A stretch of 64,000 bases of DNA. Source: a virus. Taxonomy: Duplodnaviria; Caudoviricetes. Under the pieces are notes generated by a model. The model was given only the letters and a program-made list of their open reading frames with translations. It did not search any database and was not told the DNA's origin. Positions 13,926 to 58,694 of the stretch are shown here, one piece after another. Positions within the stretch are counted from its first letter, which is position 1, and each line of letters begins with the position of its first letter. Where the stretch lies: positions 32,001 to 96,000 of IMG/VR virus record IMGVR_UViG_3300021255_003843. One strand, 5' to 3'. The position numbers and the translations under genes are program-made.

Positions 13926-13952
13926 CATATATATCCATTCTCGAGTGTAATC
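13926..13952 (-). promoter_or_regulatory. 27-bp conserved motif, copy 1 (candidate phage-RNAP late promoter)
   Basis: CATATATATCCATTCTCGAGTGTAATC, near-identical at 45602 and 53301; just upstream of Dit and downstream of a strong hairpin. Confidence 0.6.
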
Positions 13953-26000: not shown

Positions 26001-29000
26001 TTTAAACTCCTGCTTCATGGCAGGCGGCAGCTGATCAAACTCTTCGCCATTCTTAATAAAATCTTCAAGCTGTCTATAAACAAAGCCAACGTTCGCAGCC
26101 CTGCTTCCGTAATAAGTTTCTGCTTGAGACTTACCTTCAAGCTCATTCTCTTTCTTTAGAAGACCAGACAAGAACTGCTGCTTCACGCTGTCAACACTGG
26201 ACCGCAAAGTGTTAGCATGTTCTTGAGCTTGAATGTAAGTATAAGCCTTACCAAGTTGAGCATTCTCATCTAAGATACGCTGACGTTGCGCTGTTATATC
26301 GCGATAAGCCTGCATATCAATCCCGCTGCCAGCAGCGAGTTGATCAACTTCGTCGTATACGCGCGCTACTTGAGCAGCTTCGGCCTCGGCTTTCGCGAGA
26401 TCACCGTCTACCGCGTAAATACGTTTAGAAGCTTCAATAGCCTCTTCTTTTGTCATATCCGGAGAATAGCGAGCCTGATCTTCCTGCGGCAACGTACTCT
26501 TGATCTGATTCATCTGCTCTTCGTGCTGTTTCGTCTCGATCTCAATACGCTGTAATTCAGCTTGATTCTCCTGTAGCTTTTTCTCAACTGCTTCACGCTG
26601 CAGCACGGTATCCTTGCCAGTGAAAGTAAAATCTAAACCGCCCTTCTGCCCTAAGAATAATTCTGGCAGAAGCTTCGCAGGATCGTCTGTACGGAACACA
26701 GAGCTAATATTTGGCTGGTTGATACCTCTTTCGATGAAACCCTGGGCTGCAGTAATACCATATTCGTTCATCTTCTTTTGAACATAAGAATCGAACGAAA
26801 CCTCAGAGCCATCTTCCATTTTAATCATGCCACCTTGGGCTTTTTGATATGCTTCTTCCTCGATTTCACGCTTAGATGCTATAATCATAGCCTGCATATC
26901 ATCAAGCTCTTCTGCAGACATCGGAGCCATCGGGTTAGCAATATCATACGCCTTCATTGTGCGAAGGTTCTTCATCAACGCTTGCGTTGTTTCGCCTGCT
27001 CCGCCATAACCCATATGTTCAAGAGCTTGAAGCAGAGCGTACGTGCGTTCCATATTGACGCCTTTAGACGCAACCTGAGATACAGCGCGCATTGTTCCAA
27101 CGTCTGTTGTGTTAAAAATAGAACGGAAGTTGATCTTATCAAAACCAAGATCGCGAAGTTCCTTCATGTTGATAGGAATCTCATGTCCGTTTACTGTTGC
27201 GGTGTAGATGTCCTCAGGAGAAGGAACATCCATGTTGTCGCGGCCTGTTACGTTAAACAGGCGACTAAAACGAGACGGAAGCTTAGACCATTGAGCACCA
27301 GCGTATAAAGCCTTCTTCATCTGAGGAGTTGCTTCAGTAGATGTAGCGTGCTTTAACCCGGCGGTAGCTTGGTCGTAAGTAGGTGTGCTTTGAATTGCCG
27401 CTGCTAAAAGATCTTTATTTTCAGGAGCGTATATATCAAACATTGCTGCACGACGCGCAGAAGCGTCGGCAGCACCCATTTCGTTTGTAACATCTTGACT
27501 TGTTTGAAAGAATAAACGACGATGAAGCGGATTGTCTACATTTTTAGCCGCTTCGGCAGGCATATCTACCTTCTTAATAATGGGCTCCGTACTTCCTTCA
27601 AAATCCTGAATGGCTTTTTCTTGAATGGCAACTACTTCAGCAAACGCTTCAGCTAAATCGCCATAAATCGTTTTTGCTTTATCCCCATCTAAGTCTGCGC
27701 TACCAAGCGTCGCCAAATCCGCCTCAGAAGCGAATAAGCCACTCGTAGTTTGCCCGAAAACTTTATATATATCTCTCGCTAAATTAGCATAGTTTTTGCC
27801 AACAACAAAGTTGCCAAACAGAGAAGGGCTTCTTTGAACAGCAACTTTTTTAGCATCAGGTCTGGCAAAGTCAACAAGTTGACCCTTGTTTAATGCGAAC
27901 ACACCTTCGAGATCTTCGTCACTAATGGTTAAAGCTGTGCCAGTTTTTTCTTGATATTGTTGACGGATTCTTTTCAGCAAGTCAGACCTACTAAGGCCAT
28001 TGATCGTTTCAAGACCTAGTATGGACGCCAGAGGAGACTTATTGATAGTCTGGTTAATAACAGAAGGGTTTGTACCAAAATCTATCCATTCACCAGAAGA
28101 CATGCGCTCTGTCAATGATTCAATCTCGTTCTGCACCCAGCTTTGCACGGCACTGCTGTTCACGTTTAGCTTGCCGCTTCTGATCTGCTTACCGAGATAG
28201 TTGTCAGGATCAGCAAACAAATATTCTCTGATGCCAGCCTCAGAACTTAACAGGTTGATGCGTCTATCAAATTCGTCGATTTGTTGTTGACGCATCTTCG
28301 GACTGAGGTTCATAAAGGCCATTGCTTGAGTGCCGATACCTTTTGCTCTTGTTTCAGCATCATCATATGTGCTCATACTCGACATGCCATAATGCTGAAG
28401 CATCGCCGTAAAACCTTTGCTGATCTCTTCAGGAGTGTGGAAGTTCGAGTACGCCTGCATGTTTTTAATCGTAGAAGCATCAACGAAGCCATGGTAATCG
28501 GTTAAGTCAATGTTGCCGCCAACGCCAGGCAAGATAAACCGACCGTTGGCGTCCGTTAAGCCGGCAGCTTTTGCCCATTCGCCAACAGTCTTATAACCGG
28601 AGATTTGGTGGAACGTACCCTTGCCGGCAACACCCATACGGCCCTGGAAATCTTTTTCAGGTAGAATACCATCCATGAACCAGCCGATACCATCGGCAAG
28701 CTTCTGCTTCACATTTTCATCATTGATTTGAGACAGATCAACAACAGCAAAGTTGCGATTCTTGAAATTGCCATGTGTGTCCCAGCTGTTTGACCAACCT
28801 TTACCGGTTGCATCGAAGTGTTTTCTCAAGCTTTCAATGTCTTTGAATTCATAAGCAGAATCAACGAAATCATTCCAGAAATTAGCGCCCTTACCGTCGG
28901 CAGTTACAAAGCCATGCTTCTGAGCCCATTCCTGCTCACGCTTCATGACAGCTTCATAAGCTTGCTGCTCAATCATGCGGACACCAGCATGAGTACCAGT

Positions 29001-31881: not shown

Positions 31882-32217
31882 TCACTGAGCCCAAGACAAA
31901 TCTCCAAGATCTTCTACCTTCGACATGACATTGGCCTTGCCAAGCATGTCTACGAAGCTCTGATTCATCTTCTGCGGCTTTGACATCGGGTTAGCTTCCT
32001 GTATCATTTTCCAACTGTCCTTTGCAAACGCGTTACCAGCATAGTTTACTACTGCGTCGTAATTAACACGCTTGCCCAAAGCCGCCAGGACGCTGTCGAA
32101 AAACGGAATGCTCATATCGTTTATTTTATTCTCATTTGTTTCGCCAAGGTAAACCGCGATCATTGCCACGGCTTCGTCAAGGTTTAATGATTCGTTTCCT
32201 TGGCTGCCCGGTTTTTT
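31882..32217 (-). CDS. Tail assembly chaperone C-terminal extension (gpT-like), reached by -1 frameshift
   Basis: The -1 frame is open from the slippery A-AAA-AAC (32217-32211) into ORF 31882..32169, which has no good RBS. Confidence 0.8.
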   Translation of the reverse strand, partial: KKPGSQGNESLNLDEAVAMIAVYLGETNENKINDMSIPFFDSVLAALGKRVNYDAVVNYAGNAFAKDSWKMIQEANPMSKPQKMNQSFVDMLGKANVMSKVEDLGDLSWAQ

Positions 32218-45126: not shown

Positions 45127-45511
45127 AAATGCGTACCTTCCTTATTGGCGCTCCGTGTTCAACGAGAGCGTCAATAAGCTCTTCGCTCTCCTTCGTCTTC
45201 GGGAGTTCCTCGCTTGTTGCGACGGCACTCTCAAGCTTTGCCCACTCCTTCTCTGCTTCTATGTTCGCGTAGTACGCAACAAGGAGTTTGAATAAAGCCG
45301 CCGTCTTCTTATACTTGTAGGTCTTGATGCCGTACTCGTCCTCCCGGATAAAAGTAGGCTGGATCCCATGTTCGTTTAAGTAGATATACTCACGTTTCGT
45401 CTGCGTTGAGTATTCCATATCAAAAGCCCTCTTGGGAGGGTTGAGCTTATGGATAGCAGGATGCTCGGACGTCTCTGCTACAAACGTACAATCATCGCGA
45501 TCATATTTCAT
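45119..45511 (-). CDS. Hypothetical protein, first gene of the late operon
   Basis: GAGGTG RBS; overlaps the next gene. Confidence 0.7.
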   Translation of the reverse strand: MKYDRDDCTFVAETSEHPAIHKLNPPKRAFDMEYSTQTKREYIYLNEHGIQPTFIREDEYGIKTYKYKKTAALFKLLVAYYANIEAEKEWAKLESAVATSEELPKTKESEELIDALVEHGAPIRKVRIYA

Positions 45512-45601
45512 AAATGAATCACCTCAAAAAAGTTAATCAAAATAAGAGACGCTTAACAAAAGTGCGTCTCTTTTTTAGAGACGTTGGAGCACGTCTCTCT
45601 C

Positions 45602-45628
45602 CATATATATCAATTCTCGAATGTAATC
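45602..45628 (-). promoter_or_regulatory. 27-bp conserved motif, copy 2 (candidate late promoter)
   Basis: CATATATATCAATTCTCGAATGTAATC about 90 bp upstream of the structural operon. Confidence 0.6.
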
Positions 45629-45837
45629 ACAAAAATGGGATGGAAAATGGGAGTAGGAAAAGATCATATCCCCCGTGAGTTTCTTGATGAAAACTTTTTC
45701 AGCGTAAACCCCACCCCCGTAAAAAGTTTTCACTGAAACCAATGAACCCCTGGCGATATGGCGGCCGATCCGCATGAGGAAAACGCTGCCAAATAAAAAA
45801 AGCGACCTGCTGGAACAGGCCGCAAAGGAGGATTCTT

Positions 45838-46041
45838 ATGAAAAAGTACACTCTATCTGTCCGTAGCACCGCAACTCGCAGAGAAGACCCTGTTTACGAC
45901 AACAATCTTTCGAAGATGAACATGGCTGCAACCATTTTCACCGTCAGAAAGGTGCCGCAGGTCGTCATTTTCGACAATGAGGAAGAAGAAATCATTTTCC
46001 TCGCCGAGAATGGAACCGTTAAGGTGGATCATCTGCCTTAA
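45838..46041 (+). CDS. Hypothetical early protein
   Basis: AAAGGAGG RBS. Confidence 0.7.
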   Translation: MKKYTLSVRSTATRREDPVYDNNLSKMNMAATIFTVRKVPQVVIFDNEEEEIIFLAENGTVKVDHLP

Positions 46042-46163
46042 AAATCCTCCCGCCCTTGATCTTAGCACAGACTTGTGCGCAGGTCAAGGGCACTTTTCTG
46101 CCAATTAGCGGATGCGTAAATCCGCTGATGATATATCAACAAAACAAAACAGGAGGAAGAACA

Positions 46164-46502
46164 ATGTTTAACATCAATAACATGTCCCGTAGCTACGATG
46201 CCAACTCAACCGTCTCAAAGAAACACAACAATCCTATTCCTAATTGGCTTCATGCCAAGTTTCTTCTCTGGGGTTATGATCCAATAACCGACGACGAATA
46301 TCTGTTAGGAGAAACAACTGATAAACGCATCGCTCGAAGCTGGGTTAAGGAAATAAAGCGCGATCACTACACTCGAATTGTTGTTGAATTTCCTGGATCC
46401 TATTGCACTACAGCACATGAGCTGCGCTGGTGCGACGCTAAAGCAAATCCTGAAACAGTTTATTTCACTCTAAACGATAAGAGTGAAGAGATTCCATTTT
46501 AA
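46164..46502 (+). CDS. Hypothetical early protein (ends SEEIPF)
   Basis: A-rich leader + AGGAGG, ATG at 46164. Confidence 0.75.
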   Translation: MFNINNMSRSYDANSTVSKKHNNPIPNWLHAKFLLWGYDPITDDEYLLGETTDKRIARSWVKEIKRDHYTRIVVEFPGSYCTTAHELRWCDAKANPETVYFTLNDKSEEIPF

Positions 46503-46512
46503 GGAGGAACCC

Positions 46513-46662
46513 ATGATCATTATTATTCTCATCGCTGTTGCAATCTTTTTGATTTCCATTAACGATATCCTCGACGCCGTTGACGAGATGCGCTGGCAGT
46601 TCAACATGCTGCCAGCGCGTTTCTGGAAACAGAACTATAAAACGCATCGGCGTTTTTATTGA
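46513..46662 (+). CDS. 49-aa membrane protein
   Basis: AAGGAGG RBS; MIIIILIAVAIFLISINDIL...; stop overlaps the hammerhead stem. Confidence 0.65.
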   Translation: MIIIILIAVAIFLISINDILDAVDEMRWQFNMLPARFWKQNYKTHRRFY

Positions 46663-46728
46663 CCCGTCTGATGAGAGCTGGATAGCAACCAGCCGAAACG
46701 CGCTTTGGCGCGTCACGGGAAGCCAATA
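46657..46728 (+). ncRNA. Type I hammerhead ribozyme
   Basis: P1 CCCGU/ACGGG (+UAUUG/CAAUA), CUGAUGA, P2 G-GCUGG/CCAGC-C, GAAA, P3 CGCGC/GCGCG, GUC cleavage after 46714. Confidence 0.92.
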
Positions 46729-46751
46729 CCCGTTGCGGTTTCATTCTCCGC

Positions 46752-46782
46752 AAAACAAAACCCCGGTGCACGAACACCGGGG
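46752..46782 (-). terminator. Terminator for antisense transcript
   Basis: CCCCGGTG-TTCGTG-CACCGGGG-TTTTGTTTT on the minus strand. Confidence 0.75.
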
Positions 46783-46811
46783 CCTGGCGTCCACGAAAGG
46801 AGGTGATTCCT

Positions 46812-46967
46812 GTGGACACCGTAGCTCTGACAGCAGAGCAATGTGTATGGTTTCTGACCATCACAGCGCCATATCGCAGAACTCTGCTGAAGAAGCTGTC
46901 CACCGGCGAGTATGTGCTCGTATGGGATGCGGCAACGCATGAGTACATACTGACAAAGGTGGATTAA
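46812..46967 (+). CDS. 51-aa small protein covered by a predicted antisense RNA
   Basis: AAAGGAGGTGA RBS, GTG start; MDTVALTAEQCVWFLTITAPYRR... Confidence 0.65.
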   Translation: MDTVALTAEQCVWFLTITAPYRRTLLKKLSTGEYVLVWDAATHEYILTKVD

Positions 46968-47003
46968 CAGCTCACCGAGAAGGTTCACGCCCTTCTCGGT
47001 TTC

Positions 47004-47032
47004 AGTTTACCAGACACGTGAAGCCGTGTCAA
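47004..47032 (-). promoter_or_regulatory. sigmaA-type promoter (antisense)
   Basis: TTGACA-17-TAAACT with extended TG. Confidence 0.7.
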
Positions 47033-47477
47033 GATGTTAACGATTTGTTAAGTTGGATTCATAAAGAATTCCATCTTTTCATTTCGTTTTCAAAAACCCT
47101 CGCCATCGGCAAATGATCCTGATAACACATCAGATTTGTTTGTCGATGCTTCCTGTGGTATCGGACAAGCTGGCCCTTTACAGCTTGTCCGTTTTGATAT
47201 ATGCTGGTTAAGAAATTGACGCTTAACCACTTCGCTAATGTCAATTATCGTAACTTGGCTGGCGAGCCTTGTACGCGGAAGGAGGAAAATGGAAAAGGCT
47301 CCTGCCATCAACAGGAGCCATAGGAGGAAGGGATGTGAGTATCATCAACCTTCATCAGCATTATAGCATAATCACAGCTGTAATGCAAGCACATCGTGCG
47401 GCGATTAAGCATAGGCCTAGCCGTGGCAAGCGGTAAACTAACAGCAACTCAACAAACAAAAATTAGGAGGAAAAACC

Positions 47478-49988
47478 ATGAGTATCATTAATTTAGTGAA
47501 ATCCAACACCCTGTCTGTCGAAGAAACCAACGGAACCGGTGTCACTTTGAACACCGAAAACCATGCGTTCGGTCTGACTCCCGCGTTCACTCGCTTCTCC
47601 CCCGATTACTTCCAGATCATCGACACTGGAGATATGGATCGCGGAGAAATCCCCGCAGTTCAGAACTATCTCGACAACATCATCGACAACGGCATCCAGG
47701 ATGGAAGCCGTCGCTACATCCCGGTTTTCGCCGGTTCCAGCAACCAGCGCAATGGTCAGTTTGTAATGTGCTGGGACAAAATCTGGAACGACGTTACATC
47801 CTGGTGCTGTGCCGGTCTCGATTGCAGGAAATTGCCTGTAGGCAAGCTCGCCAAATACATGGCACTCATGTTCTCAACCGTTCGTTCCTGGGATGCTGTG
47901 TTTCCCGATGGTGGACTCTATGGGGTGTTCAAGTACCCACATCCCAGCACCTGGGGCGTGTTCCCTGACGTTGACATTGACGCTGTTGGCCTGTTCAATA
48001 AGGTCACTCCGTGGGCTGTAAACAAAGAACTGGTCCTCGGTTCTGACAAAGAGACCAACAAGATCACTGATGGTATCGCTCTGTTCGTTCTGGACGATAC
48101 TCAGCTCAACTCTCATCAGAAGAAAGAGATCATCAAGAAAGCAGAAGCTTTCACCGTCAGAGCTCCCATGGTCAAAGGTCTCTTCGTTCCTGTTCTCAAA
48201 TCCGCATTGATCAAGTGGTTCGAAGATCATCCCGAAGCGTCGTCTATTCAGAAGGACGCTTGGGGCAACGAACAGAACCTGCTCGACCTCCAGGTCATCA
48301 CCTTCAAGTCTGTCTTCAAAGCTTGGAAGTGCATCAAGCAGTGGTCCGAGTACGTTGAAGGCTTCGATACCTACGAGCACCATGTGTGGGTCTGCATCGC
48401 GGCGCACGGGGAGCGTTGGGCTTCCCTGCCGTATCAGCAGCTCCAAACCCTCAACGCCAACAATGCGCAGGTCGAGGAGCTCGCGCGCACCAGCGCGAGC
48501 TTCCTCATCGACAATGCCAAGATCGGTAAGCTTGGCAAGATCATCGGAGGAAACCTTGGCAAGATCGTCGACATCTTCCCGGATATGCTGCATGATCCCT
48601 TCGTCCGTGAGCAGCTGCAGCGGAAGTGGATTAGCCGCTGCAAGCAGATGTATGGCGGCCGCATCCTGCATGTCAGCCATAATCTGTTCTGCTCCAGCGA
48701 CATCATTGCCGTTATTGAAGGGTTGACTGGTCAGTCCGTTCATGGCGTGCTGCCTGCCAATACCGTGCACACTCAGGCCTTTGGTTACGACAGGAAGCTG
48801 GGCTGCACTCGCTGCCCGCATCTCGACAACGCGTGGGTCACTCCGCGCAACATCAAGGTTCCTGAGGAATATCTTGGCCTGTACATGGGCACCACAATCT
48901 TCTACAGCTGCAATGACAACACCATGAAGGTTCATCAGATGGACTTTGACGGTGATCACAGCAACGTTACCGACAATCCACTGCTCATCAAGCTGGCTGA
49001 GTACAGCCATGCCAGCTATGGCGATTCCTGCCTGCTGTACGCGGCCATGGACGATGGCACCGCGCCGAAGACGACGTCTGATTATAAGACTGAGTTCAAC
49101 GAGCTGTGCCGCAACAGCTTCAAGGCTCCGATCGGCCTGTACGCCAACACCCTGACCAAGGTTTGGGCTCTGCGTAACATGATGGAAAAGACCAGCGCTC
49201 AGGCTAAGAACCTGTGGGTGTGGATCGCCTGCCTGACCAGGAAGGGCAACACCTGCATTGATGAAGCTGGCGGACATGGCAAAGACAGCTCCGTCGGCAT
49301 CGCGGAAGACGTGGTCGAACGGTTCCGTCGGACAAAGAAGCCATGGTTCCATGGTTATGCCAAGGGCACGATCAATCCTCAGGGTCAGATCGTCCGCGCT
49401 GACGCCGACTACAAGTACGAGTTCAAGCCGTTCCACACTGTCGACGTCTATAGCGCCATCTGCCGGATGCTTGTGCCGACAGAGGCTGAAACAGTGATCG
49501 ATCTGTCCGCTTATTCCATTATTTACTCCAAAGAAGTAGCGGCCAGGATCGTTCGTACCCTTATGAAGGATTCCAATGTCCGCACCCGTCGTGCGGCCAT
49601 GAAGGATCTTTCTGATACCTTCGCCGATCTCGTCTGCGCAGCCAACCATGAAGAAGTGCTGATCGCTCAGAGCAGCAGCCTGGCCGCTGTGCCGAACTTC
49701 ACCATGGATAAGGTCGATCTGATCCGCGCCAAGTGCGAGCAGATCGCTCTGAACTGCGGCTACACGCTGGACGACGCTGTCGACATTCTGGTCTTCAATC
49801 TGTTCTACAAGACCAGCGCGACCAGTGCGAAAACCTCCATGATGAAGCGCTGGTTCTTCATCGCCTTCGGTGACATCGTGTTCGAAAACGCGCAGCGCAA
49901 CCTGTCCGTTGAACTCACGACCACCGACAACTACGAAGACGCCTCCGAGGAGGAGGATGACGACGCGATCGATCAGTTGGAAGACTGA
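47478..49988 (+). CDS. Single-subunit two-barrel (YonO-like) DNA-dependent RNA polymerase
   Basis: 836 aa; TDG(198), R....KG, YQ.LQTL, RCP, catalytic D489-F-D-G-D493. Confidence 0.88.
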   Translation: MSIINLVKSNTLSVEETNGTGVTLNTENHAFGLTPAFTRFSPDYFQIIDTGDMDRGEIPAVQNYLDNIIDNGIQDGSRRYIPVFAGSSNQRNGQFVMCWDKIWNDVTSWCCAGLDCRKLPVGKLAKYMALMFSTVRSWDAVFPDGGLYGVFKYPHPSTWGVFPDVDIDAVGLFNKVTPWAVNKELVLGSDKETNKITDGIALFVLDDTQLNSHQKKEIIKKAEAFTVRAPMVKGLFVPVLKSALIKWFEDHPEASSIQKDAWGNEQNLLDLQVITFKSVFKAWKCIKQWSEYVEGFDTYEHHVWVCIAAHGERWASLPYQQLQTLNANNAQVEELARTSASFLIDNAKIGKLGKIIGGNLGKIVDIFPDMLHDPFVREQLQRKWISRCKQMYGGRILHVSHNLFCSSDIIAVIEGLTGQSVHGVLPANTVHTQAFGYDRKLGCTRCPHLDNAWVTPRNIKVPEEYLGLYMGTTIFYSCNDNTMKVHQMDFDGDHSNVTDNPLLIKLAEYSHASYGDSCLLYAAMDDGTAPKTTSDYKTEFNELCRNSFKAPIGLYANTLTKVWALRNMMEKTSAQAKNLWVWIACLTRKGNTCIDEAGGHGKDSSVGIAEDVVERFRRTKKPWFHGYAKGTINPQGQIVRADADYKYEFKPFHTVDVYSAICRMLVPTEAETVIDLSAYSIIYSKEVAARIVRTLMKDSNVRTRRAAMKDLSDTFADLVCAANHEEVLIAQSSSLAAVPNFTMDKVDLIRAKCEQIALNCGYTLDDAVDILVFNLFYKTSATSAKTSMMKRWFFIAFGDIVFENAQRNLSVELTTTDNYEDASEEEDDDAIDQLED

Positions 49989-50096
49989 TCGTCGCGTCGC
50001 TCAGGCGTCACGCTCCGTCGCGCAAAGAGCGGCCATGCTGTGGCAAGCGGCAATTCTCTGTAATAATAAAAAACAAAAAAATGGGAGGAAAACACA

Positions 50097-50603
50097 ATGT
50101 CTATCACTTTGAAGTCTATGCGCGCTGGTAAGGTTTCCGTCAATGAGTTCAATACCTATCCCGAGATGCTGCCCGTTCTCATGAAGATCCATGGCATGAA
50201 TCTGCCTTACTACATCCTCGAAGATGGCAAGATGATCTTCCAGGGCAACCTGGAGTTCGTCGAGAAGGAGAAGGACGCACCCGTCTCTTATACCCTGAAG
50301 ACGATGAACGAGGATGGTATGACTGACACCGCTCAATTCACCAATTTCGCCGACCTGTCTATCGCTGCCGCAGTGGCAGACATCAACCATATGCCGTGGT
50401 TCGTAGTCGATAACCATTCCGGCAAGATCATTCGTCAGGGTAATATCGAGCGCGTTGCCGCCATCAAGAGCGGCAACGCGCCGGAGACCTGCGTCGCCGA
50501 AGAGCCTGTCCCCGAAACTCCTGACGTCGACGTCGATATAGACGCTACGCTTGATGAGATGAACGATCTCATCGGAGATCTCGGCGCTCTTGACAATATC
50601 TAA
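50097..50603 (+). CDS. Hypothetical protein
   Basis: A-rich leader, GGGAGG; internal repeat (P.Y/W....GK.I.QGN.E.V) twice; acidic tail. Confidence 0.75.
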   Translation: MSITLKSMRAGKVSVNEFNTYPEMLPVLMKIHGMNLPYYILEDGKMIFQGNLEFVEKEKDAPVSYTLKTMNEDGMTDTAQFTNFADLSIAAAVADINHMPWFVVDNHSGKIIRQGNIERVAAIKSGNAPETCVAEEPVPETPDVDVDIDATLDEMNDLIGDLGALDNI

Positions 50604-50708
50604 GTCTGAGCTTCACACCACAGGCCGCCGTGTGCGGCCTGCGAGTGAGCCCCAGGCTCAAATACAAAAGCCAGATGGATGCGGCCATCTGGCGGAAGGA
50701 GGTTACCC

Positions 50709-50825
50709 ATGTACGGCTACTGCACTGACTGTGGCTATATGGGGCTCGTTGGTAACGAGTGGATTCTCTTCGCGACAGAAGAAGAATACCATGAGTACCT
50801 CCAGCCCGATGATACCACAGACTAA
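50709..50825 (+). CDS. 38-aa small protein (GYMGLV...LFATEEEY)
   Basis: GAAGGAGG RBS; below track cutoff. Confidence 0.7.
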   Translation: MYGYCTDCGYMGLVGNEWILFATEEEYHEYLQPDDTTD

Positions 50826-50939
50826 CACGTAAGTCAAGCTATGACCTGAGTACGTCGTTAAACTGCTCCGGCTTGTCTGCGCCGTAAAGACAGGCTTCTT
50901 ATCCCGCAGCGCGGCTCCCCCTTTTTTCCGGCCCCATAT

Positions 50940-51030
50940 TTTTCCCGCTTCCGCTCGCTCCGCTCCACCTCGCCTTCGGCTCGCTCCGCTCCGCTTCGCT
51001 GCTTGCGTGCGCTTCCGCGCTTGTTTCCGG
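50940..51030. repeat. CGCTC/CGCTT pyrimidine-rich low-complexity tract
   Basis: About 10 CGCTY-like units; almost no A on the + strand. Confidence 0.7.
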
Positions 51031-51203
51031 ATGTTGCTCTATCGTGTGATTCTGTCCGAGTTTTCCTGATAACTTATCTGGAAAAGTCAGGATGAGCGGC
51101 ATCCTGCGATAATTTATCCATCCTTCATGTCAGGAAGAAGTTTGCAGATAAATTATCTGGATTTCTCAGGCAAGTCTCATGCGTCTCGCAAAATTGAGTA
51201 TGG

Positions 51204-51234
51204 GCGCGCTGAGGACAGCGCGCGCCATGGTGAT
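51204..51234 (+). promoter_or_regulatory. AGGA-loop hairpin motif, copy 1
   Basis: GCGCGCTG-AGGA-CAGCGCGC-GCCATGGTGAT. Confidence 0.7.
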
Positions 51235-51275
51235 AGCTTCGTTTATCGAAATAACTTGAAGGAGGAAGCTGCGCT

Positions 51276-51437
51276 ATGGCGCTCGTGGTATTCATAATCC
51301 TGATAACAATCATCATGCTTGGTGACATCATCGTGGATCTATTGGATCAATTCTTGTGGCCGCTCATACTGCGTCGGGACGCACTGCATGTAGATAAGCG
51401 GAAACGTCCAAAACGCCAGAAATGGCAGTATCGTTAA
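51276..51437 (+). CDS. 53-aa membrane protein with basic tail
   Basis: AAGGAGG RBS; MALVVFIILITIIMLGD...KRKRPKRQKWQYR. Confidence 0.6.
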   Translation: MALVVFIILITIIMLGDIIVDLLDQFLWPLILRRDALHVDKRKRPKRQKWQYR

Positions 51438-51511
51438 AAACTCTACTGAATAAAAAAGCCGGACGCCCAATGAAAGGCGTCCGGCTTTCGTGAATGAAGG
51501 AGGAAATCACT

Positions 51512-51985
51512 ATGTGCAAAATCACTGATGTTACTATTGTTACCGACGGCGCTTGCTCCGGCAATCCTGGTCCCGGAGGCTGGTGCGCTCTCATGATCTG
51601 CGAAGGCAAGGAGCGCTCACTGCACGGCCACAAGACGCAGACCACCAACAATGAGATGGAACTCACTGCCGTGGTCCAGGGTCTTCAGGTGCTGCGCTAT
51701 CCCTGCACGGTGAAGGTACTGACCGACAGCGCTTACATCGTCAACCAGATCAATGGCGGTTATCTCGAGAAGTGGGCCAGCAATGGCTGGCGCACCTCGA
51801 CGAACCAGCCGGTGCAAAACCTGCACCTGTGGCAGGACCTGCGTGCAATGCTCAATGTGCACACCGTCACCTTCGTCAAGGTGAAGGGTCACAGCGGCGA
51901 TCCGCTCAACGAGAGAGCGGACCATGAAGCCTGCTGCGAGCGTGATCTTGCGAAAATCATGGCGTTCTCCGTAACGCCCGTGTAA
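51512..51985 (+). CDS. rnhA: Ribonuclease HI
   Basis: TDGACSGNPGPGGW, TTNNEMEL, TDSAY, N..LW, VKGHSG...NERAD. Confidence 0.95.
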   Translation: MCKITDVTIVTDGACSGNPGPGGWCALMICEGKERSLHGHKTQTTNNEMELTAVVQGLQVLRYPCTVKVLTDSAYIVNQINGGYLEKWASNGWRTSTNQPVQNLHLWQDLRAMLNVHTVTFVKVKGHSGDPLNERADHEACCERDLAKIMAFSVTPV

Positions 51986-52002
51986 TACAAGGAGGTTGTC
52001 AT

Positions 52003-52182
52003 ATGAGAAAGAACACTGGACTTATTCTCGCGATGCTGTTTATGATGTGCGTCGCTTTCGTAGCCGGTTGGCTGATCACTACGCATCATCTGGTGATCGA
52101 GTGCGACCATCCAAAGAATACGATCTACGTGACAGACATGTTCGGCCAGGAGTGGATCTACGATTACAATTGTGTCCGCTGA
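52003..52182 (+). CDS. 59-aa membrane/secreted protein
   Basis: AAGGAGG RBS; MRKNTGLILAMLFMMCVAFVAGWL... Confidence 0.65.
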   Translation: MRKNTGLILAMLFMMCVAFVAGWLITTHHLVIECDHPKNTIYVTDMFGQEWIYDYNCVR

Positions 52183-52207
52183 TGTCACAGGTCGAACCCG
52201 TAAAGGT

Positions 52208-52238
52208 GCGCGGCGAGGACGCCGCGCGCCATGGTGAT
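52208..52238 (+). promoter_or_regulatory. AGGA-loop hairpin motif, copy 2
   Basis: GCGCGGCG-AGGA-CGCCGCGC-GCCATGGTGAT. Confidence 0.7.
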
Positions 52239-52273
52239 ATAACGCACTTCTAATAAGTGTTGAATGAAGGAGA

Positions 52274-52612
52274 ATGAGTATGTATCAGTATAAGGTTCAG
52301 ATGATCAACCACAATATGCCGTCCAGGCATTATACGCTGCAGCACAGGCTGAACACCTGGCTCGAGGCTACCGGCACGACCAAGGCAGAACTCTCCCGTG
52401 CCTGCCAGGCCTACGCTTCTCACTATCGCATGAACTTCTCTAAGACGAACATCGCTCATTATTCTGCAGGACGCTGCTGCCCGAAGACGGACACTCTCGC
52501 GATCCTGAGCCATGTCATGGGAGTCTCTGAGCAGTGGCTCACTGGCTACGGTCCGGAATCTCTGCGTGTCACCAGAACTCTGGTATCTACGACACGCTAC
52601 ACCAGGGTATGA
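52274..52612 (+). CDS. XRE-family helix-turn-helix regulator
   Basis: RL...T.AELSR...SKTNI.HY..G...PK.DTL..LS....VSEQWLTG. Confidence 0.85.
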   Translation: MSMYQYKVQMINHNMPSRHYTLQHRLNTWLEATGTTKAELSRACQAYASHYRMNFSKTNIAHYSAGRCCPKTDTLAILSHVMGVSEQWLTGYGPESLRVTRTLVSTTRYTRV

Positions 52613-53205
52613 CACAGATGAGAGCGTGCTGAAATATGCACGCTCTCTTTTTTCAGAATCCTGGATGAAACTCAGGCTATTCTGTACAGAAGGGTCGCGA
52701 TCACTGAACGATCGGGGGACAAGCTATATAATAAATACGATGTCCCCGGATGCACGAGCTCCACTGGTAGAAAAACACCATAATGCACGAAACATTTTGG
52801 TTAGGGAGCAATGACGTGGAATAGTTGGGAATGTAAGTGAAATCAGGGGAAATGATAGGGGAGAGAACAGTTCTTTTCCTGTTTTTCCTATTTTCTATTC
52901 CTTTTTCATGCTCAATGACCACAGCAGTGCTCCTTAATACCCCACTTTTCTATATAAGCACCAATTGTAGTTTTCTACACTGATAGAGACGGCCGTGTGT
53001 TCACGCTTCGTGAATACCCGTTGCGTATCGCTACACTGGTAGATACACACATTCCGTCTCTAACGATAGACCCATAGGGTTCCTACTAACAACATCTAAG
53101 CGCTCCCTTTCCTCCACGCCTTTTGGATAGGCGGGGAAAGGGAGCTTATTCATGACCGTGCTTCTCTCATATTCGTTTCTAAACAACACATATGTATCTA
53201 ACATT

Positions 53206-53248
53206 ACGAAAAGGGGAGGGCTGCTGGCGCAGCCCTCCCCTTTTCGTG
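53206..53248. terminator. Bidirectional terminator hairpin
   Basis: ACGAAAAGGGGAGGGCTGC-TGGC-GCAGCCCTCCCCTTTTCGT. Confidence 0.75.
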
Positions 53249-53300
53249 TAAATCAACGTTTTTCGTTTGCATATTCGAAGGTCCGCTTCGCGTCCCTTCT

Positions 53301-53327
53301 CATATATATCCATTCTCGAATGTAATC
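53301..53327 (-). promoter_or_regulatory. 27-bp conserved motif, copy 3
   Basis: CATATATATCCATTCTCGAATGTAATC in a non-coding region. Confidence 0.55.
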
Positions 53328-53425
53328 GCACCTACATACTTTATCTGATATAGTACATCGACAGATGATGTATATATATCTGGTTGAATTTTTAACCAGA
53401 TTATCCTGGACATACCTCGCCTTAA

Positions 53426-53456
53426 CCGCGCTGAGGACAGCGCGGGCCATGATGGA
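53426..53456 (+). promoter_or_regulatory. AGGA-loop hairpin motif, copy 3
   Basis: CCGCGCTG-AGGA-CAGCGCGG-GCCATGATGGA. Confidence 0.7.
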
Positions 53457-53471
53457 ACTTACGGGGACTCC

Positions 53472-53500
53472 ATTATACTGTCGCCGTGAAACCCTGTCAA
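53472..53500 (-). promoter_or_regulatory. Consensus sigmaA promoter on the minus strand
   Basis: TTGACA-17-TATAAT, perfect match. Confidence 0.8.
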
Positions 53501-53571
53501 GTTAAATTTTTATTACAAATTTTCGTCGTCTTGCGCTGCAATGGACGATGTAAACCCGCCAGGAGGACCAT

Positions 53572-53826
53572 ATGGAAGAAGAGTTCAAAGAAGGAGATCT
53601 TGTCGTCATCAAACAGAGCAAACATTGCTTAGTTGAAGACATCAGACAAGAACATCGCAAAGCATTTGAGATTCTTTGCGCGACGCCGCACGCAGTGAGA
53701 GATTATAAGAAATCATCAAATCTACTTTATGTTCCGGTTCTGGAAGGCAATGCCACAATTGTCTTGAGTCCGGAATGGTTTGAGCACGCTGACGATCCCA
53801 TCGAGAACAATCCTGACCTGTACTGA
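53572..53826 (+). CDS. SH3/KOW-like paralog 1
   Basis: FKEGDLVVIK...WFE...DLY. Confidence 0.75.
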   Translation: MEEEFKEGDLVVIKQSKHCLVEDIRQEHRKAFEILCATPHAVRDYKKSSNLLYVPVLEGNATIVLSPEWFEHADDPIENNPDLY

Positions 53827-53861
53827 CGCCACTTCCCCGCTCCGCCGTTACGCAGACGGGG

Positions 53862-53892
53862 GCGGCCTGAGGACAGGCCGCGCCAGGATGAA
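53862..53892 (+). promoter_or_regulatory. AGGA-loop hairpin motif, copy 4
   Basis: GCGGCCTG-AGGA-CAGGCCGC-GCCAGGATGAA. Confidence 0.7.
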
Positions 53893-53948
53893 GGGTTTGA
53901 CGCCCTTCGGAAATAACAAACGTGCGGCAGAGCCGCGAGGAGGAAATT

Positions 53949-54137
53949 ATGGAGCGTGAATATTTCTTTAACCAGAGCAAAGCTTTTGATCCGACCGCCG
54001 GCTGCGCCCTGAACCGCATCGAAGCGGAGCAGAAAAGAAAAAGGAATAAGGAAGCCTGGCTCGAGATCGCCCGCAAGATGTGTTCTAAGCCTCAGCATCT
54101 CTTTGTTCCGGTAGGTGAACTGGTTGTGAAAGCCTGA
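53949..54137 (+). CDS. Hypothetical small protein
   Basis: GAGGAGG RBS; DPTAG.A...I motif. Confidence 0.65.
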   Translation: MEREYFFNQSKAFDPTAGCALNRIEAEQKRKRNKEAWLEIARKMCSKPQHLFVPVGELVVKA

Positions 54138-54175
54138 TCCCGCCGGGAAAAGAAGCTTGACTTCAGCAACGAAAG

Positions 54176-54206
54176 GCGGCCTGAGGACAGGCCGCGCCAG
54201 GGTGAA
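54176..54206 (+). promoter_or_regulatory. AGGA-loop hairpin motif, copy 5
   Basis: GCGGCCTG-AGGA-CAGGCCGC-GCCAGGGTGAA. Confidence 0.7.
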
Positions 54207-54381
54207 GGGTTATACGGCCCTTGCCCGACGAATCGCAAAACAAAAGCGATTCGTCGCAAAATCAAGACTCGTTACGCGCTGCAGACAAATGCTCCGGCGC
54301 GAAACGATATATTTTGATGCGAAAAGCATCCGACAAAATGGCAGACGCCAAACGCCCACAGGGCAGAAAGAGAGAGAGAGT

Positions 54382-54801
54382 ATGAATAAGCTGTTTATCA
54401 TGGGTCACCTCACCGCCGACGCTACCGTCCGCACCGTCAATGTCGCTGGCGTTCCTACGCCTGTTGCCACCTTCACCGTCGCTGCCAACTATGGACGCCG
54501 CAACGAGAATGGTGACCGCAACGTCCAGTTCGTGCGCTGCACCGCGTGGCGTGAATTCGCCAGCAAGCTCGCGCCGTACCTGAAGAAGGGCACCCAGGTG
54601 GCCGTCGAAGGTCCGTGCCGCGTCTCCGTGTACCAGAGCAACCAGGACCGCACCTGGCGTGGTCAGCTCGAGATCCCGACGATCGAGAGCTTCGAGTTCC
54701 TGAGCGCCCAGAAGAGGGACGAAGCGGCTGAACCCGCAGAAGCGCCCGCTCCTGAGACGCCCGCTGCTCCCGCCGCCGATGACGGCTACCCCTTCGATTA
54801 A
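54382..54801 (+). CDS. ssb: Single-stranded DNA-binding protein
   Basis: MNKLFIMGHLT.D...F.VA.N...F..C.AW...YLKKG.QVAVEG; tail DDGYPFD. Confidence 0.92.
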   Translation: MNKLFIMGHLTADATVRTVNVAGVPTPVATFTVAANYGRRNENGDRNVQFVRCTAWREFASKLAPYLKKGTQVAVEGPCRVSVYQSNQDRTWRGQLEIPTIESFEFLSAQKRDEAAEPAEAPAPETPAAPAADDGYPFD

Positions 54802-57917: not shown

Positions 57918-57990
57918 GGCCTCTTAGCTCAGCCGGTAGAGCAGCTGACTGTTAATCAGCCGGTCGCGCGTTCAAATCGCGCAGAGGCCT
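57918..57990 (+). tRNA. tRNA-Asn(GUU)
   Basis: Acceptor GGCCTCT/AGAGGCC, D arm GCTC/GAGC, anticodon arm GCTGA-CT GTT AA-TCAGC, T loop TTCAAAT; no encoded CCA. Confidence 0.92.
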
Positions 57991-58162
57991 CGTCGGGACG
58001 ATCTGCCGGAAAATGGCGCAGATCACGCGCAACGCTGTTGGAACAGAAGGCTTGGGTTGCGCAACTTGTCAGCAAAAGAAATATCTATAGTTTTTAGCCA
58101 TTTCCATGCCTTGCTTACAGCTGACAGCCCTGCCGCTGGGGTCATAATACAGCGGATTTTAT

Positions 58163-58355: not shown

Positions 58356-58454
58356 GGTGCTGCCTTACAGGGGGCAGTATGCCGGAGTCATGACCGGCAC
58401 TTCTGTACGTCGTTTTGGCACCGGTTTGGGCGCTATAATCTAACTGGTGCACGT

Positions 58455-58528
58455 GGGGATTTAGCTCATCAGGTCAGAGCAGCGCTCTTATAAAGCGCAG
58501 GTGCATGGTTCAAGTCCATGAATCCCTA
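58455..58528 (+). tRNA. tRNA-Ile(UAU)
   Basis: GGGGATT/AATCCCT acceptor, GCGCT-CT TAT AA-AGCGC anticodon arm, CATGG-TTCAAGT-CCATG T arm, A73. Confidence 0.9.
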
Positions 58529-58601
58529 TTTGCCCGTGACCATGGAAACACGGGCAAGACGCATCGCCTCTTTAAAATATAGCCGGCGTGTCCGGCTATA
58601 T

Positions 58602-58673
58602 AGGGGAGTAGCCAAACGGAAAGGCACGGGACTTTGACTCCCGCATGTGAAGGTTCAACTCCTTCCTCCCCTG
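58602..58673 (+). tRNA. tRNA-Gln(UUG)
   Basis: AGGGGAG/CTCCCCT acceptor, CGGGA-CT TTG AC-TCCCG, GAAGG-TTCAACT-CCTTC, G73. Confidence 0.92.
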
Positions 58674-58694
58674 CTACGAAATCAAGGAGCTTAT

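Follow-up and report, generated by a model that had tools for sequence, protein, structure and literature searches.

A covarying hairpin-and-tail element ahead of early phage genes, and its candidacy as a promoter for a phage-encoded RNA polymerase

Which factor reads a short structured element that recurs ahead of early genes of a phage, and does it read the element as DNA or as RNA? The question arises from the stretch of phage DNA analyzed here (the window; 64,000 nucleotides, positions 32,001 to 96,000 of record IMGVR_UViG_3300021255_003843), in which the first-pass annotation had noticed five covarying hairpins with a common loop and 3' tail and had proposed three explanations: promoters for the virion RNA polymerase, boxB-like antitermination sites, or GGA-loop sites for a CsrA-like protein. 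Positions below are those of the window, unless given as genome positions.

Five hairpin units in the early region

Exactly five sites in the 105,495-bp genome of this gut phage combine a perfect 8-bp GC hairpin, an AGGA loop and a 10-base GCCAKGRTGR tail. All five were recovered at the positions first reported, on the + strand within a 3-kb span and each ahead of a + strand gene:

51204-51223, tail 51224-51233, + strand: copy 1, stem GCGCGCTG, loop AGGA, stem CAGCGCGC, tail GCCATGGTGA
52208-52227, tail 52228-52237, + strand: copy 2, stem GCGCGGCG, loop AGGA, stem CGCCGCGC, tail GCCATGGTGA
53426-53445, tail 53446-53455, + strand: copy 3, stem CCGCGCTG, loop AGGA, stem CAGCGCGG, tail GCCATGATGG
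53862-53881, tail 53882-53891, + strand: copy 4, stem GCGGCCTG, loop AGGA, stem CAGGCCGC, tail GCCAGGATGA
54176-54195, tail 54196-54205, + strand: copy 5, stem GCGGCCTG, loop AGGA, stem CAGGCCGC, tail GCCAGGGTGA

A pattern search returned these 5 matches against 0.23 expected, a number that none of 100 shuffled sequences attained. When the whole genome was scanned on both strands for AGGA closed by a perfect stem of at least 6 bp, a GC stem was present only in the five copies, and five of the seven genomic occurrences of the tail GCCA[GT]G[AG]TG[AG] (0.62 expected per strand) are joined to hairpins. The units stand 43-180 nt ahead of a start codon and are co-oriented with the genes that follow; the conserved tail and uniform orientation described at first sight were thus borne out in 5/5 copies.

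Copy 1 (55.5 bits with the covariance model) lies 43 nt ahead of the ATG of a 53-aa membrane-like ORF (51276-51437), which is followed by an RNase H gene (51512-51985). Copy 2 (49.7 bits), whose stem can be extended to 11 bp (52205-52230), is found 25 nt past the stop codon of a 59-aa ORF and 43 nt ahead of the ATG of a 110-aa HTH-like regulator (52280-52612). Copy 3 sits in a non-coding stretch of ~900 nt, between a bidirectional terminator (53210-53245) and an 84-aa ORF (53572-53826), with flanks that are kept in relatives. Copy 4 is located 35 nt past a stop codon and 58 nt ahead of a 62-aa ORF (53949-54137), and copy 5 lies 38 nt past a stop codon and 177 nt ahead of the SSB gene (54382-54801). 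Copies 2, 4 and 5, at 25-38 nt past a stop codon with no terminator between, are therefore also transcribed and would fold in RNA.

RNA folding placed a second hairpin after four of the five copies, in agreement with the initial description, and paired the tail of copy 1 with the start-codon region (-45.6 kcal/mol, z -7.6). A search for hairpins beginning exactly at the RTGA of the tail gave no peak at any offset. Rfam covariance models returned nothing relevant at the gathering threshold, nor at E<=1 over 50800-54500, and a nucleotide search of deposited phages returned no match. The looser relative that had been suggested at 45802-45823 does not belong to the family: it has a mismatch, a 6-nt loop, no tail and no covariance-model match, and on the minus strand it reads as a terminator-like hairpin followed by TTTTTTT.

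Covariation and lineage-specific loops in related phages

A covariance-model scan of the genome and its relatives recovered 3-9 copies in each related phage, at the same syntenic places. Copy density is 5-9 per ~3.5 kb, and some long leaders without genes hold tandem copies, three in L118 and two in L047. In the complete relative G001, 7 copies fall within 3.7 kb of its 111 kb. Copy c of L047 lies 65 nt past an intrinsic terminator and is the sole conserved element ahead of the HTH gene.

An alignment of 28 copies confirmed that the compensatory stem changes first seen among the five copies are real and extend to orthologous copies in relatives. The stem is paired in 99.1% of its alignment cells, with double compensatory changes at 6 of the 8 pairs; pairs 8/25 and 14/19 are invariant, and one-sided (G-U) changes are absent from all 224 cells. 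Near-complete pairing without G-U fits a structure that is required to pair as DNA. The upper stem and loop are conserved while the lower stem varies yet stays paired, as in N4-type promoters. A double-stranded operator for an HTH protein was rejected, because the lower stems covary rather than being conserved in sequence.

The AGGA loop, initially described as invariant, is so within this genome, whereas relatives carry AGGA, GGGA and, in a single instance from the same clade (L047), GAAA; counted by eye, 26 of the 28 copies have an RGGA loop. More distant phages have loops of their own (AGG in AGG-G, AGA, ACG/ATG, CAAG and TYAC) and keep a common plan of a GC hairpin, 6-12 nt and then [GAT]TG[AG]. 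A loop and tail version that differs from lineage to lineage is what would be expected of a co-evolving protein reader.

Phage RNA polymerases and transcriptional context

The phage encodes two free YonO-type RNA polymerases and probably a third that is fused to the tape measure protein. The features relevant to transcription are:

47478..49988, + strand: RNAP-2, an early free-standing YonO-type RNA polymerase of 836 aa with DFDGD; its homologs carry PF05183, and it matches SPbeta yonO at E 2e-12
53472..53500, - strand: a perfect sigma-A promoter, TTGACA-17-TATAAT, which faces copy 3 and is kept in L047, L118 and L121

The RNAP-2 gene lies just upstream of the hairpin cluster, and a 947-aa paralog is encoded at genome positions 97324-100167 (E 8e-19). 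The tape measure N-terminus carries FQGR...D[LF]DGD, which is conserved in G001; the order of these motifs, the G001 homolog with D[LF]DGD and the precedent of phage P23-45 make it a probable RNA polymerase domain, although a sequence search of this N-terminus against the PDB and a BLASTP comparison with the 836-aa polymerase gave no significant match.

RNAP-2 is a candidate reader of the element, even though the motif does not follow the RNAP-2 allele. The hairpins of L117 and L121 are identical while their early polymerases share only 47% identity, and G001 has the motif despite a tape measure N-terminal domain that is only 23% identical and an early polymerase gene replaced by a barely related one. 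The conservation pattern fits the conserved 947-aa polymerase better than the two hypervariable enzymes. Of the original proposal of promoters for the virion polymerase, a promoter for a phage RNA polymerase survives as the best remaining reading; its assignment to the virion (tape-measure-fused) enzyme is unsupported, because the motif tracks neither the early polymerase allele nor the tape measure domain.

No + strand sigma-A promoters were found ahead of the hairpin-marked genes, and the good sigma-A sites of the region all face the opposite way. A minus-strand transcript from the site at 53472..53500 would cross copy 3 in antisense and run to the terminator at 53245-53210. Terminators also lie downstream of the early leaders, at 51455-51490 and 52620-52647. 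Exact 10-mer counts brought up no other convincing promoter motif, and GACCTGTCAA gave no clear motif. The RNA data consist of assembled contigs from a single metatranscriptome run on the same sample as the likely source metagenome, with tiny depth and possible DNA carry-over. Two of these contigs, which cannot show RNA ends, meet at copy 5 (53981-54207, depth 2.6, and 54193-54499, depth 6.7), and no contig of that run was placed within 45501-53516; they weigh neither for nor against any reading.

Candidate functions of the element

The explanation that we favor, with a confidence just short of an even call, is that each unit serves one of the phage's own non-sigma RNA polymerases as a promoter, with the hairpin as part of it. 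All copies in the genome fall within the early region and point the same way as its genes, and those genes have no sigma-A promoter in a phage that brings its own polymerases. Some copies, moreover, are placed where a new transcription unit must begin, as is the case for copy 3, after the bidirectional terminator, and for copy c of L047. The conservation pattern, with loop and stem top fixed and the lower stem free but paired, matches that described for N4 hairpin promoters. We infer that the element acts as DNA: the promoter would be active only once the hairpin forms in unwound DNA, as in N4, the conserved loop, stem top and 3' tail would provide specificity, and RNA synthesis would start at the hairpin base or within the tail, near the conserved RTGA, with one of the phage polymerases as the presumptive reader. 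In read-through RNA the same hairpin would also form, perhaps capping the message before it at its 3' end, in the manner of the pre-early terminator-promoter pairs of P23-45.

Several observations speak against a promoter. Hairpins that covary mostly turn out to be RNA elements and much more rarely DNA promoters, and copies 2, 4 and 5 are transcribed and would fold in RNA as well. A motif that stays constant while the early polymerase and the tape measure domain diverge is not easily reconciled with recognition by either enzyme. The coding strand bears the purine-rich loop, contrary to the arrangement in N4, and neither promoter of P23-45 is a hairpin, a comparison that likewise argues against this explanation. 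Five copies in 3 kb, furthermore, are too few to serve the ~77 kb of + strand genes beyond them.

With more reserve, we suggest that the motif could be the first promoter class to be defined for YonO-type two-barrel single-subunit RNA polymerases. It would be a DNA hairpin that has converged on the promoters of N4, in a large group of SPbeta-like gut and rumen siphoviruses with up to three such polymerases, each lineage using a loop and tail "dialect" of its own. Cellular RNA polymerases have minimal relatives in the YonO-type enzymes, and a compact, conserved and covarying 30-nt element that sits where the promoters of these enzymes should be is a candidate that can be tested directly. Were it to function as a DNA hairpin, it would represent a second independent invention of hairpin promoters, now for a two-barrel enzyme, and possibly an orthogonal expression part.

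The strongest competitor, which we consider rather unlikely, is that a phage (or host) RNA-binding protein or endoribonuclease recognizes the hairpin and tail in the transcript. It would cut the early polycistronic RNA into gene-sized pieces, stabilize the ends of these pieces or stop early translation. T7 RNase III sites, Cas6 repeat hairpins, the histone stem-loop with SLBP and T4 RegA/RegB are analogues of such a system. Protein-bound RNA hairpins are classically recognized by a covarying stem combined with conservation of the loop and the 3' flank, the transcription of copies 2, 4 and 5 agrees with it, as do the second hairpin after the tail in most copies and the pairing of the copy 1 tail with the start-codon region, and independence from the polymerase alleles is expected if a different, conserved factor is involved. 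Yet no candidate RNA-binding protein or nuclease was found, RNase III needs a stem longer than 8 bp, and translational operators do not lie as far from the SD/AUG as the hairpin does, at 40 nt or more. Tandem copies in leaders without genes and copies straight after terminators are also hard to explain at the RNA level, the total absence of G-U pairs is unusual in an RNA family, and the hairpin-marked genes would be left with no promoter candidate. Should it prove to be an RNA site instead, the element would define a new module of RNA-protein recognition in phages, one that sets the punctuation of early messages.

It is improbable that the units are terminators or insulators for a phage polymerase, in which a hairpin would be joined to a sequence-specific release site in the way of the conserved-loop terminators that separate pre-early genes in P23-45. 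Three of the five copies are at a terminator-like distance from a stop codon, and the conserved-sequence hairpin terminators of P23-45 stand 6-40 nt from the next promoter. Against it, no copy has a U/T run directly 3' of the hairpin on the + strand, as an intrinsic terminator would, copies 1 and 3 have no upstream + strand gene, copy c of L047 comes after a canonical terminator, and the tandem copies precede genes instead of trailing them. A terminator consensus scan flagged copy 5 alone, read on the minus strand; a minus-strand terminator reading of the copies was rejected, as 4/5 lack the T-run.

More doubtful still is a processive antitermination site of the boxB/nut or put type. A short GC stem, a purine-rich loop (of GNRA type in the case of GGGA and GAAA) and a location in early leaders with terminators downstream recall lambda and P22 boxB, the latter a resemblance that the first-pass annotation had noted. 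However, boxB has a 5-bp stem, a GNRA-like pentaloop, a boxA on its 5' side and a single site per operon, which is enough, acting on host polymerase; here we found an 8-bp stem, a tetraloop, a conserved linear element 3' of the hairpin rather than a 5' boxA, and 5-9 copies per 3.5 kb, including tandem ones, with no upstream sigma-A promoter to supply host polymerase for modification and no Rfam match. The proposal that these are high-affinity sites for a CsrA-like regulator, with the loop GGA paired with the GGA of the SD, is the least credible: RGGA tetraloops match the CsrA SELEX loop, which counts in its favor, and an SD lies ~48-50 nt downstream of copies 1 and 2, but GGA is not kept across the family (one GAAA loop in the same clade; AGG-G, AGA, ACG, CAAG and TYAC loops in related phages), the conserved tail is not accounted for and the phage genome lacks a CsrA gene (no PF02599 match).

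The promoter reading can be set beside three known systems. The early promoters of the N4 virion RNA polymerase have a 5-7 bp stem and a 3-nt loop, 5'-GGA-3' on the template strand, with loop and stem top conserved, a lower stem that is free but always paired, and RNA starting a few nt 3' of the hairpin base (PMC4496689). The element shares with them a short GC-rich inverted repeat with this conservation pattern, a conserved single-stranded stretch between the hairpin and the presumed start, and the placement of a few copies before early genes in a phage equipped with a polymerase of its own; SSB takes part in N4, and the SSB gene lies behind copy 5 here. It differs in its 8-bp stem and 4-nt purine loop on the coding strand (with TCCY expected on the template strand), in copy number and place (5-9 mid-record, against 3 at the genome end in N4) and in the polymerases, which are two-barrel YonO-type here and T7-like in N4. 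The analogy is one of principle only.

Phage P23-45 drives its early genes from non-sigma motifs with a tape-measure-fused vRNAP (gp96) and a YonO-like nvRNAP (gp64) (PMC10770324). Both phages have a giant tape measure with an N-terminal D-x-D-G-D domain, a free two-barrel polymerase and conserved non-sigma motifs flanking each of their small early genes; GC hairpins with a conserved loop directly adjoin the next promoter in P23-45, and the gp64 promoter core CTAGGGGC is purine-rich, as is the RGGA loop. In contrast, the P23-45 promoters are linear, AT-rich TTATTCCTTTA or GC-rich GGTCTAGGGGCTTT, and end at or near the start site; neither sequence is present in the hairpin motif, with which they have no sequence similarity. 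The conserved hairpins of P23-45 are, in addition, terminators with a T-run.

The promoter sequence of SPbeta YonO, of which the 836-aa and 947-aa proteins are homologs, is still undefined (PMC5467207). YonO has a single start site, published at position 2225998 of the 168 genome, and transcribes late genes, in both of which it differs from the situation here. The forward primer of the published SPbeta primer extension covers a hairpin, TGGAGA-TTCC-TCTCCA, followed by GTGTGAAC. This region offers no covariation, because relatives are at least 92% identical there, and its spacing from hairpin to GTGA is 2 nt instead of 6-9; even so, the primer-covered hairpin recalls the plan of a hairpin followed by ...GTGAA.

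Hairpin units in the studied genome and its relatives

The window lies in a single virus record of 105,495 bp with 48% GC, and its five hairpin units match the first-pass annotation: each combines an 8-bp G+C stem, an AGGA loop and the tail GCCA[GT]G[AG]TG[AG], and all are intergenic, on the + strand and ahead of genes.

Hairpin units (window coordinates)
51204, +, copy 1, ahead of a 53-aa ORF and then RNase H
52208, +, copy 2, ahead of an HTH-like protein
53426, +, copy 3, ahead of an 84-aa ORF
53862, +, copy 4, ahead of a 62-aa ORF
54176, +, copy 5, ahead of SSB

A pattern search for hairpin plus tail returned five matches against 0.23 expected, a whole-genome scan of both strands revealed no further GC stems around an AGGA loop, and the tail is rarely found without the hairpin (five of its seven genomic occurrences are hairpin-attached). 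By RNA folding the first hairpin forms in every copy; the second hairpin said to follow often is predicted in four copies but is not conserved. In copy 1 read as RNA, the start-codon region pairs with the tail. A looser relative proposed at 45802 has a mismatch, a 6-nt loop, no tail and no covariance-model match, and was rejected as a family member; on the minus strand it is terminator-like.

A pattern scan of IMG/VR identified one true relative, contig L047, amid chance matches, and further relatives' contigs were obtained via homologs of the neighbouring 836-aa gene. A covariance model built on 12 copies found the family in these relatives (seven matches in L047, three in L117, three in the 41-kb contig fragment G007, which shares its sample with L117, six in L121 and seven to nine in L118-L120), always on the gene strand and at 27-58 bits. 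The complete 111-kb relative genome, G001, is the record to which L047 belongs; it contains seven matches inside 3.7 kb and none elsewhere. Copies are syntenic across relatives, preceding the RNase H unit, the HTH gene, the 62-aa gene and SSB, and the stems of orthologous copies differ despite this synteny.

Among 28 aligned copies, 99.1% of stem cells are paired and both sides have changed in six of the eight pairs, bearing out the compensatory changes first noted; double changes occupy 56 cells versus 21.9 in shuffles, a value reached by 0 of 500 shuffles. In these copies no pair has changed on a single side, so that G-U intermediates are absent. The closing G-C pair, the Y-R pair beneath it, the loop RGGA and the tail (R)GC[CA]NN[GAT][GT]TGA are invariant or nearly so; the loop described as invariant AGGA holds for the five copies here, but across relatives becomes RGGA and once GAAA. 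The hairpin units are a real signal family under strong selection. No Rfam family matches the motif and we found no paper describing it; as a sequence family it is new.

In the same genomic place, more distant phages show versions particular to them:
L122, C-AGG-G loops and GCATGAARTGA
L123, AGG loop and YTCCAGTGRTGG
L125, TYAC loop and TACCCGGRTGA
L124, AGA loop and ...GGGGATGAAG
G003, ACG/ATG loop and CTTGGTG..GTGG
G005, CAAG loop and AYTATACYKTGAA
The plan shared by these versions is thus a GC hairpin, 6-12 nt and then [GAT]TG[AG], with loops and tails set by lineage.

Polymerase candidates and motif recognition

Terminase, portal, head and tail genes form a minus-strand block that includes a 5,453-aa tape measure directly before Dit; the + strand block begins at 45838. 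The genome encodes three polymerase candidates:
Window 47478-49988, +, 836-aa YonO homolog (SPbeta yonO match, E 2e-12)
Genome 97324-100167, 947-aa paralog with DVDGD (E 8e-19)
Window 26800-29300, -, tape-measure N-terminus with FQGR...ADLDGD (residues ~560-910)

PF05183 is present in some homologs of the 836-aa protein, and the 947-aa paralog has many SPbeta-like relatives. The tape-measure N-terminus has no significant similarity to the 836-aa enzyme; it is 23% identical (E 2e-8) to its G001 counterpart (5,924-aa frame; L171 3013-9000), with DFDGD in the same place. Its sequence fits a fast-evolving fused polymerase like that of Thermus phage P23-45, in which a tape-measure-fused and a free polymerase use two non-sigma promoter motifs (PMC10770324). 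The studied phage has the same design, with a putative tape-measure-fused polymerase and a free one.

We compared the early-polymerase loci of L117 (9161-12510), L121 (2538-7352) and L047 (8774-11587, -). L117 and L121 have flanking DNA 93-95% identical on both sides, identical hairpins and 836-aa-type proteins 47% identical, a difference suggestive of a cassette swap. The same motif is present in G001, which carries at the early-polymerase position a 937-aa DNDGD protein with a 79-residue match only (E 4e-4). The early YonO-type gene (window 47478-49988) is a hypervariable, swappable cassette, replaced in G001.

As judged by these comparisons, motif and early polymerase do not vary together. 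This, along with the 23% identity of the tape-measure N-domain, makes it unlikely that either the virion enzyme or the early enzyme is the specific reader; the virion-RNAP link originally proposed thus fares poorly, given the same motif in G001. The 947-aa polymerase shares 76% identity with its G001 counterpart, and phages whose homolog is at most 53% identical have no model matches and carry variant motifs instead. Candidate readers are this conserved enzyme or a conserved non-polymerase factor, and recognition might rest mostly on structure.

Possible roles: transcription start signal or RNA-level site

Our tentative reading, to which we give slightly less than an even chance, is that the family constitutes a hairpin-type transcription start signal for a YonO-type polymerase. 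This would account for co-orientation with genes and placement ahead of each, confinement to one temporal block, tandem copies within gene-free leaders, copies right behind terminators (L047 copy c; copy 3), the absence of other promoter candidates, and the all-Watson-Crick stems. It would also account for a split like that in phage N4, whose hairpin promoters have a conserved top and a lower stem free to vary yet paired (PMC4496689). No + strand sigma-A promoters were seen in the hairpin region, where the good sigma-A sites are all leftward, each with a matching minus-strand terminator. Against a start signal, the motif shows no dependence on two of the three polymerases, its loop lies on the opposite strand from that of N4, and for three copies transcription arriving from upstream is certain. 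Each hairpin may also play two parts, as 3' end of the upstream message and start signal for the next, by analogy with the adjacent terminator-promoter pairs of P23-45 (PMC10770324).

The main rival is a site acting in the RNA and recognised by a nuclease or binding protein, which would explain covariation and polymerase independence equally well. Under this reading the genes lack promoters and there is no candidate protein; we consider it rather unlikely. The boxB and CsrA sites suggested earlier, and a plain terminator, each fall short on defining features here.

Other signals around the hairpins

A further repeat family, ATATATATC.ATTCTCGAATGT, occurs as four copies in the genome and four in G001, and is absent in G003, G005 and G006:
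Window 13927-13948, +, repeat copy
Window 45603-45624, +, repeat copy
Window 53302-53323, +, repeat copy
Genome 101389, -, repeat copy about 5.4 kb past the window end
On the opposite strand, every copy faces a unit that is late or lies downstream: Dit with the tail genes, the packaging/head block from 45511, a short RNA that stops at the 53245-53210 terminator, and + genes at genome 101457. The family is likely a late promoter for a phage polymerase.

Leftward sigma-A promoters and paired terminators are as follows:
53500-53472, -, promoter, perfect TTGACA-17-TATAAT
50809-50837, -, promoter
47004-47032, -, promoter
46059-46087, -, promoter
50670-50693, -, terminator
46758-46785, -, terminator
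45802-45823, -, terminator
From such pairs the host would make short antisense RNAs against early phage genes and, in the case of 53500, against hairpin copy 3. The promoter at 53500 is kept in L047, L118 and L121.

Three operator-like GATAAnTTATC palindromes (51068-51078, 51108-51118, 51147-51157) sit within the 370-nt leader immediately upstream of copy 1, and their partner could be the HTH-like gene at 52280. Purine-rich short repeats like GGAAAATGGGAG occur at 45630-45700 and 52780-52870, inside the two long non-coding stretches, with similar ones in L117, L118 and L121; their role could be that of iterons or of a different signal. Scanned with Rfam at the gathering threshold, the whole window yielded three phage tRNA genes only (Asn-GTT, 57918-57991; Ile-TAT, 58454-58529; Gln-TTG, 58602-58674). 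Ahead of their first hairpin copies, the studied phage (window 50905-51010) and L047 (6820-7000, -) share a conserved non-coding block, CCCCTTTTTTCCGG(G)CCCCATATTTTTCCCGCTTC, with GCTTCG/CTCCG-rich repeats behind it.
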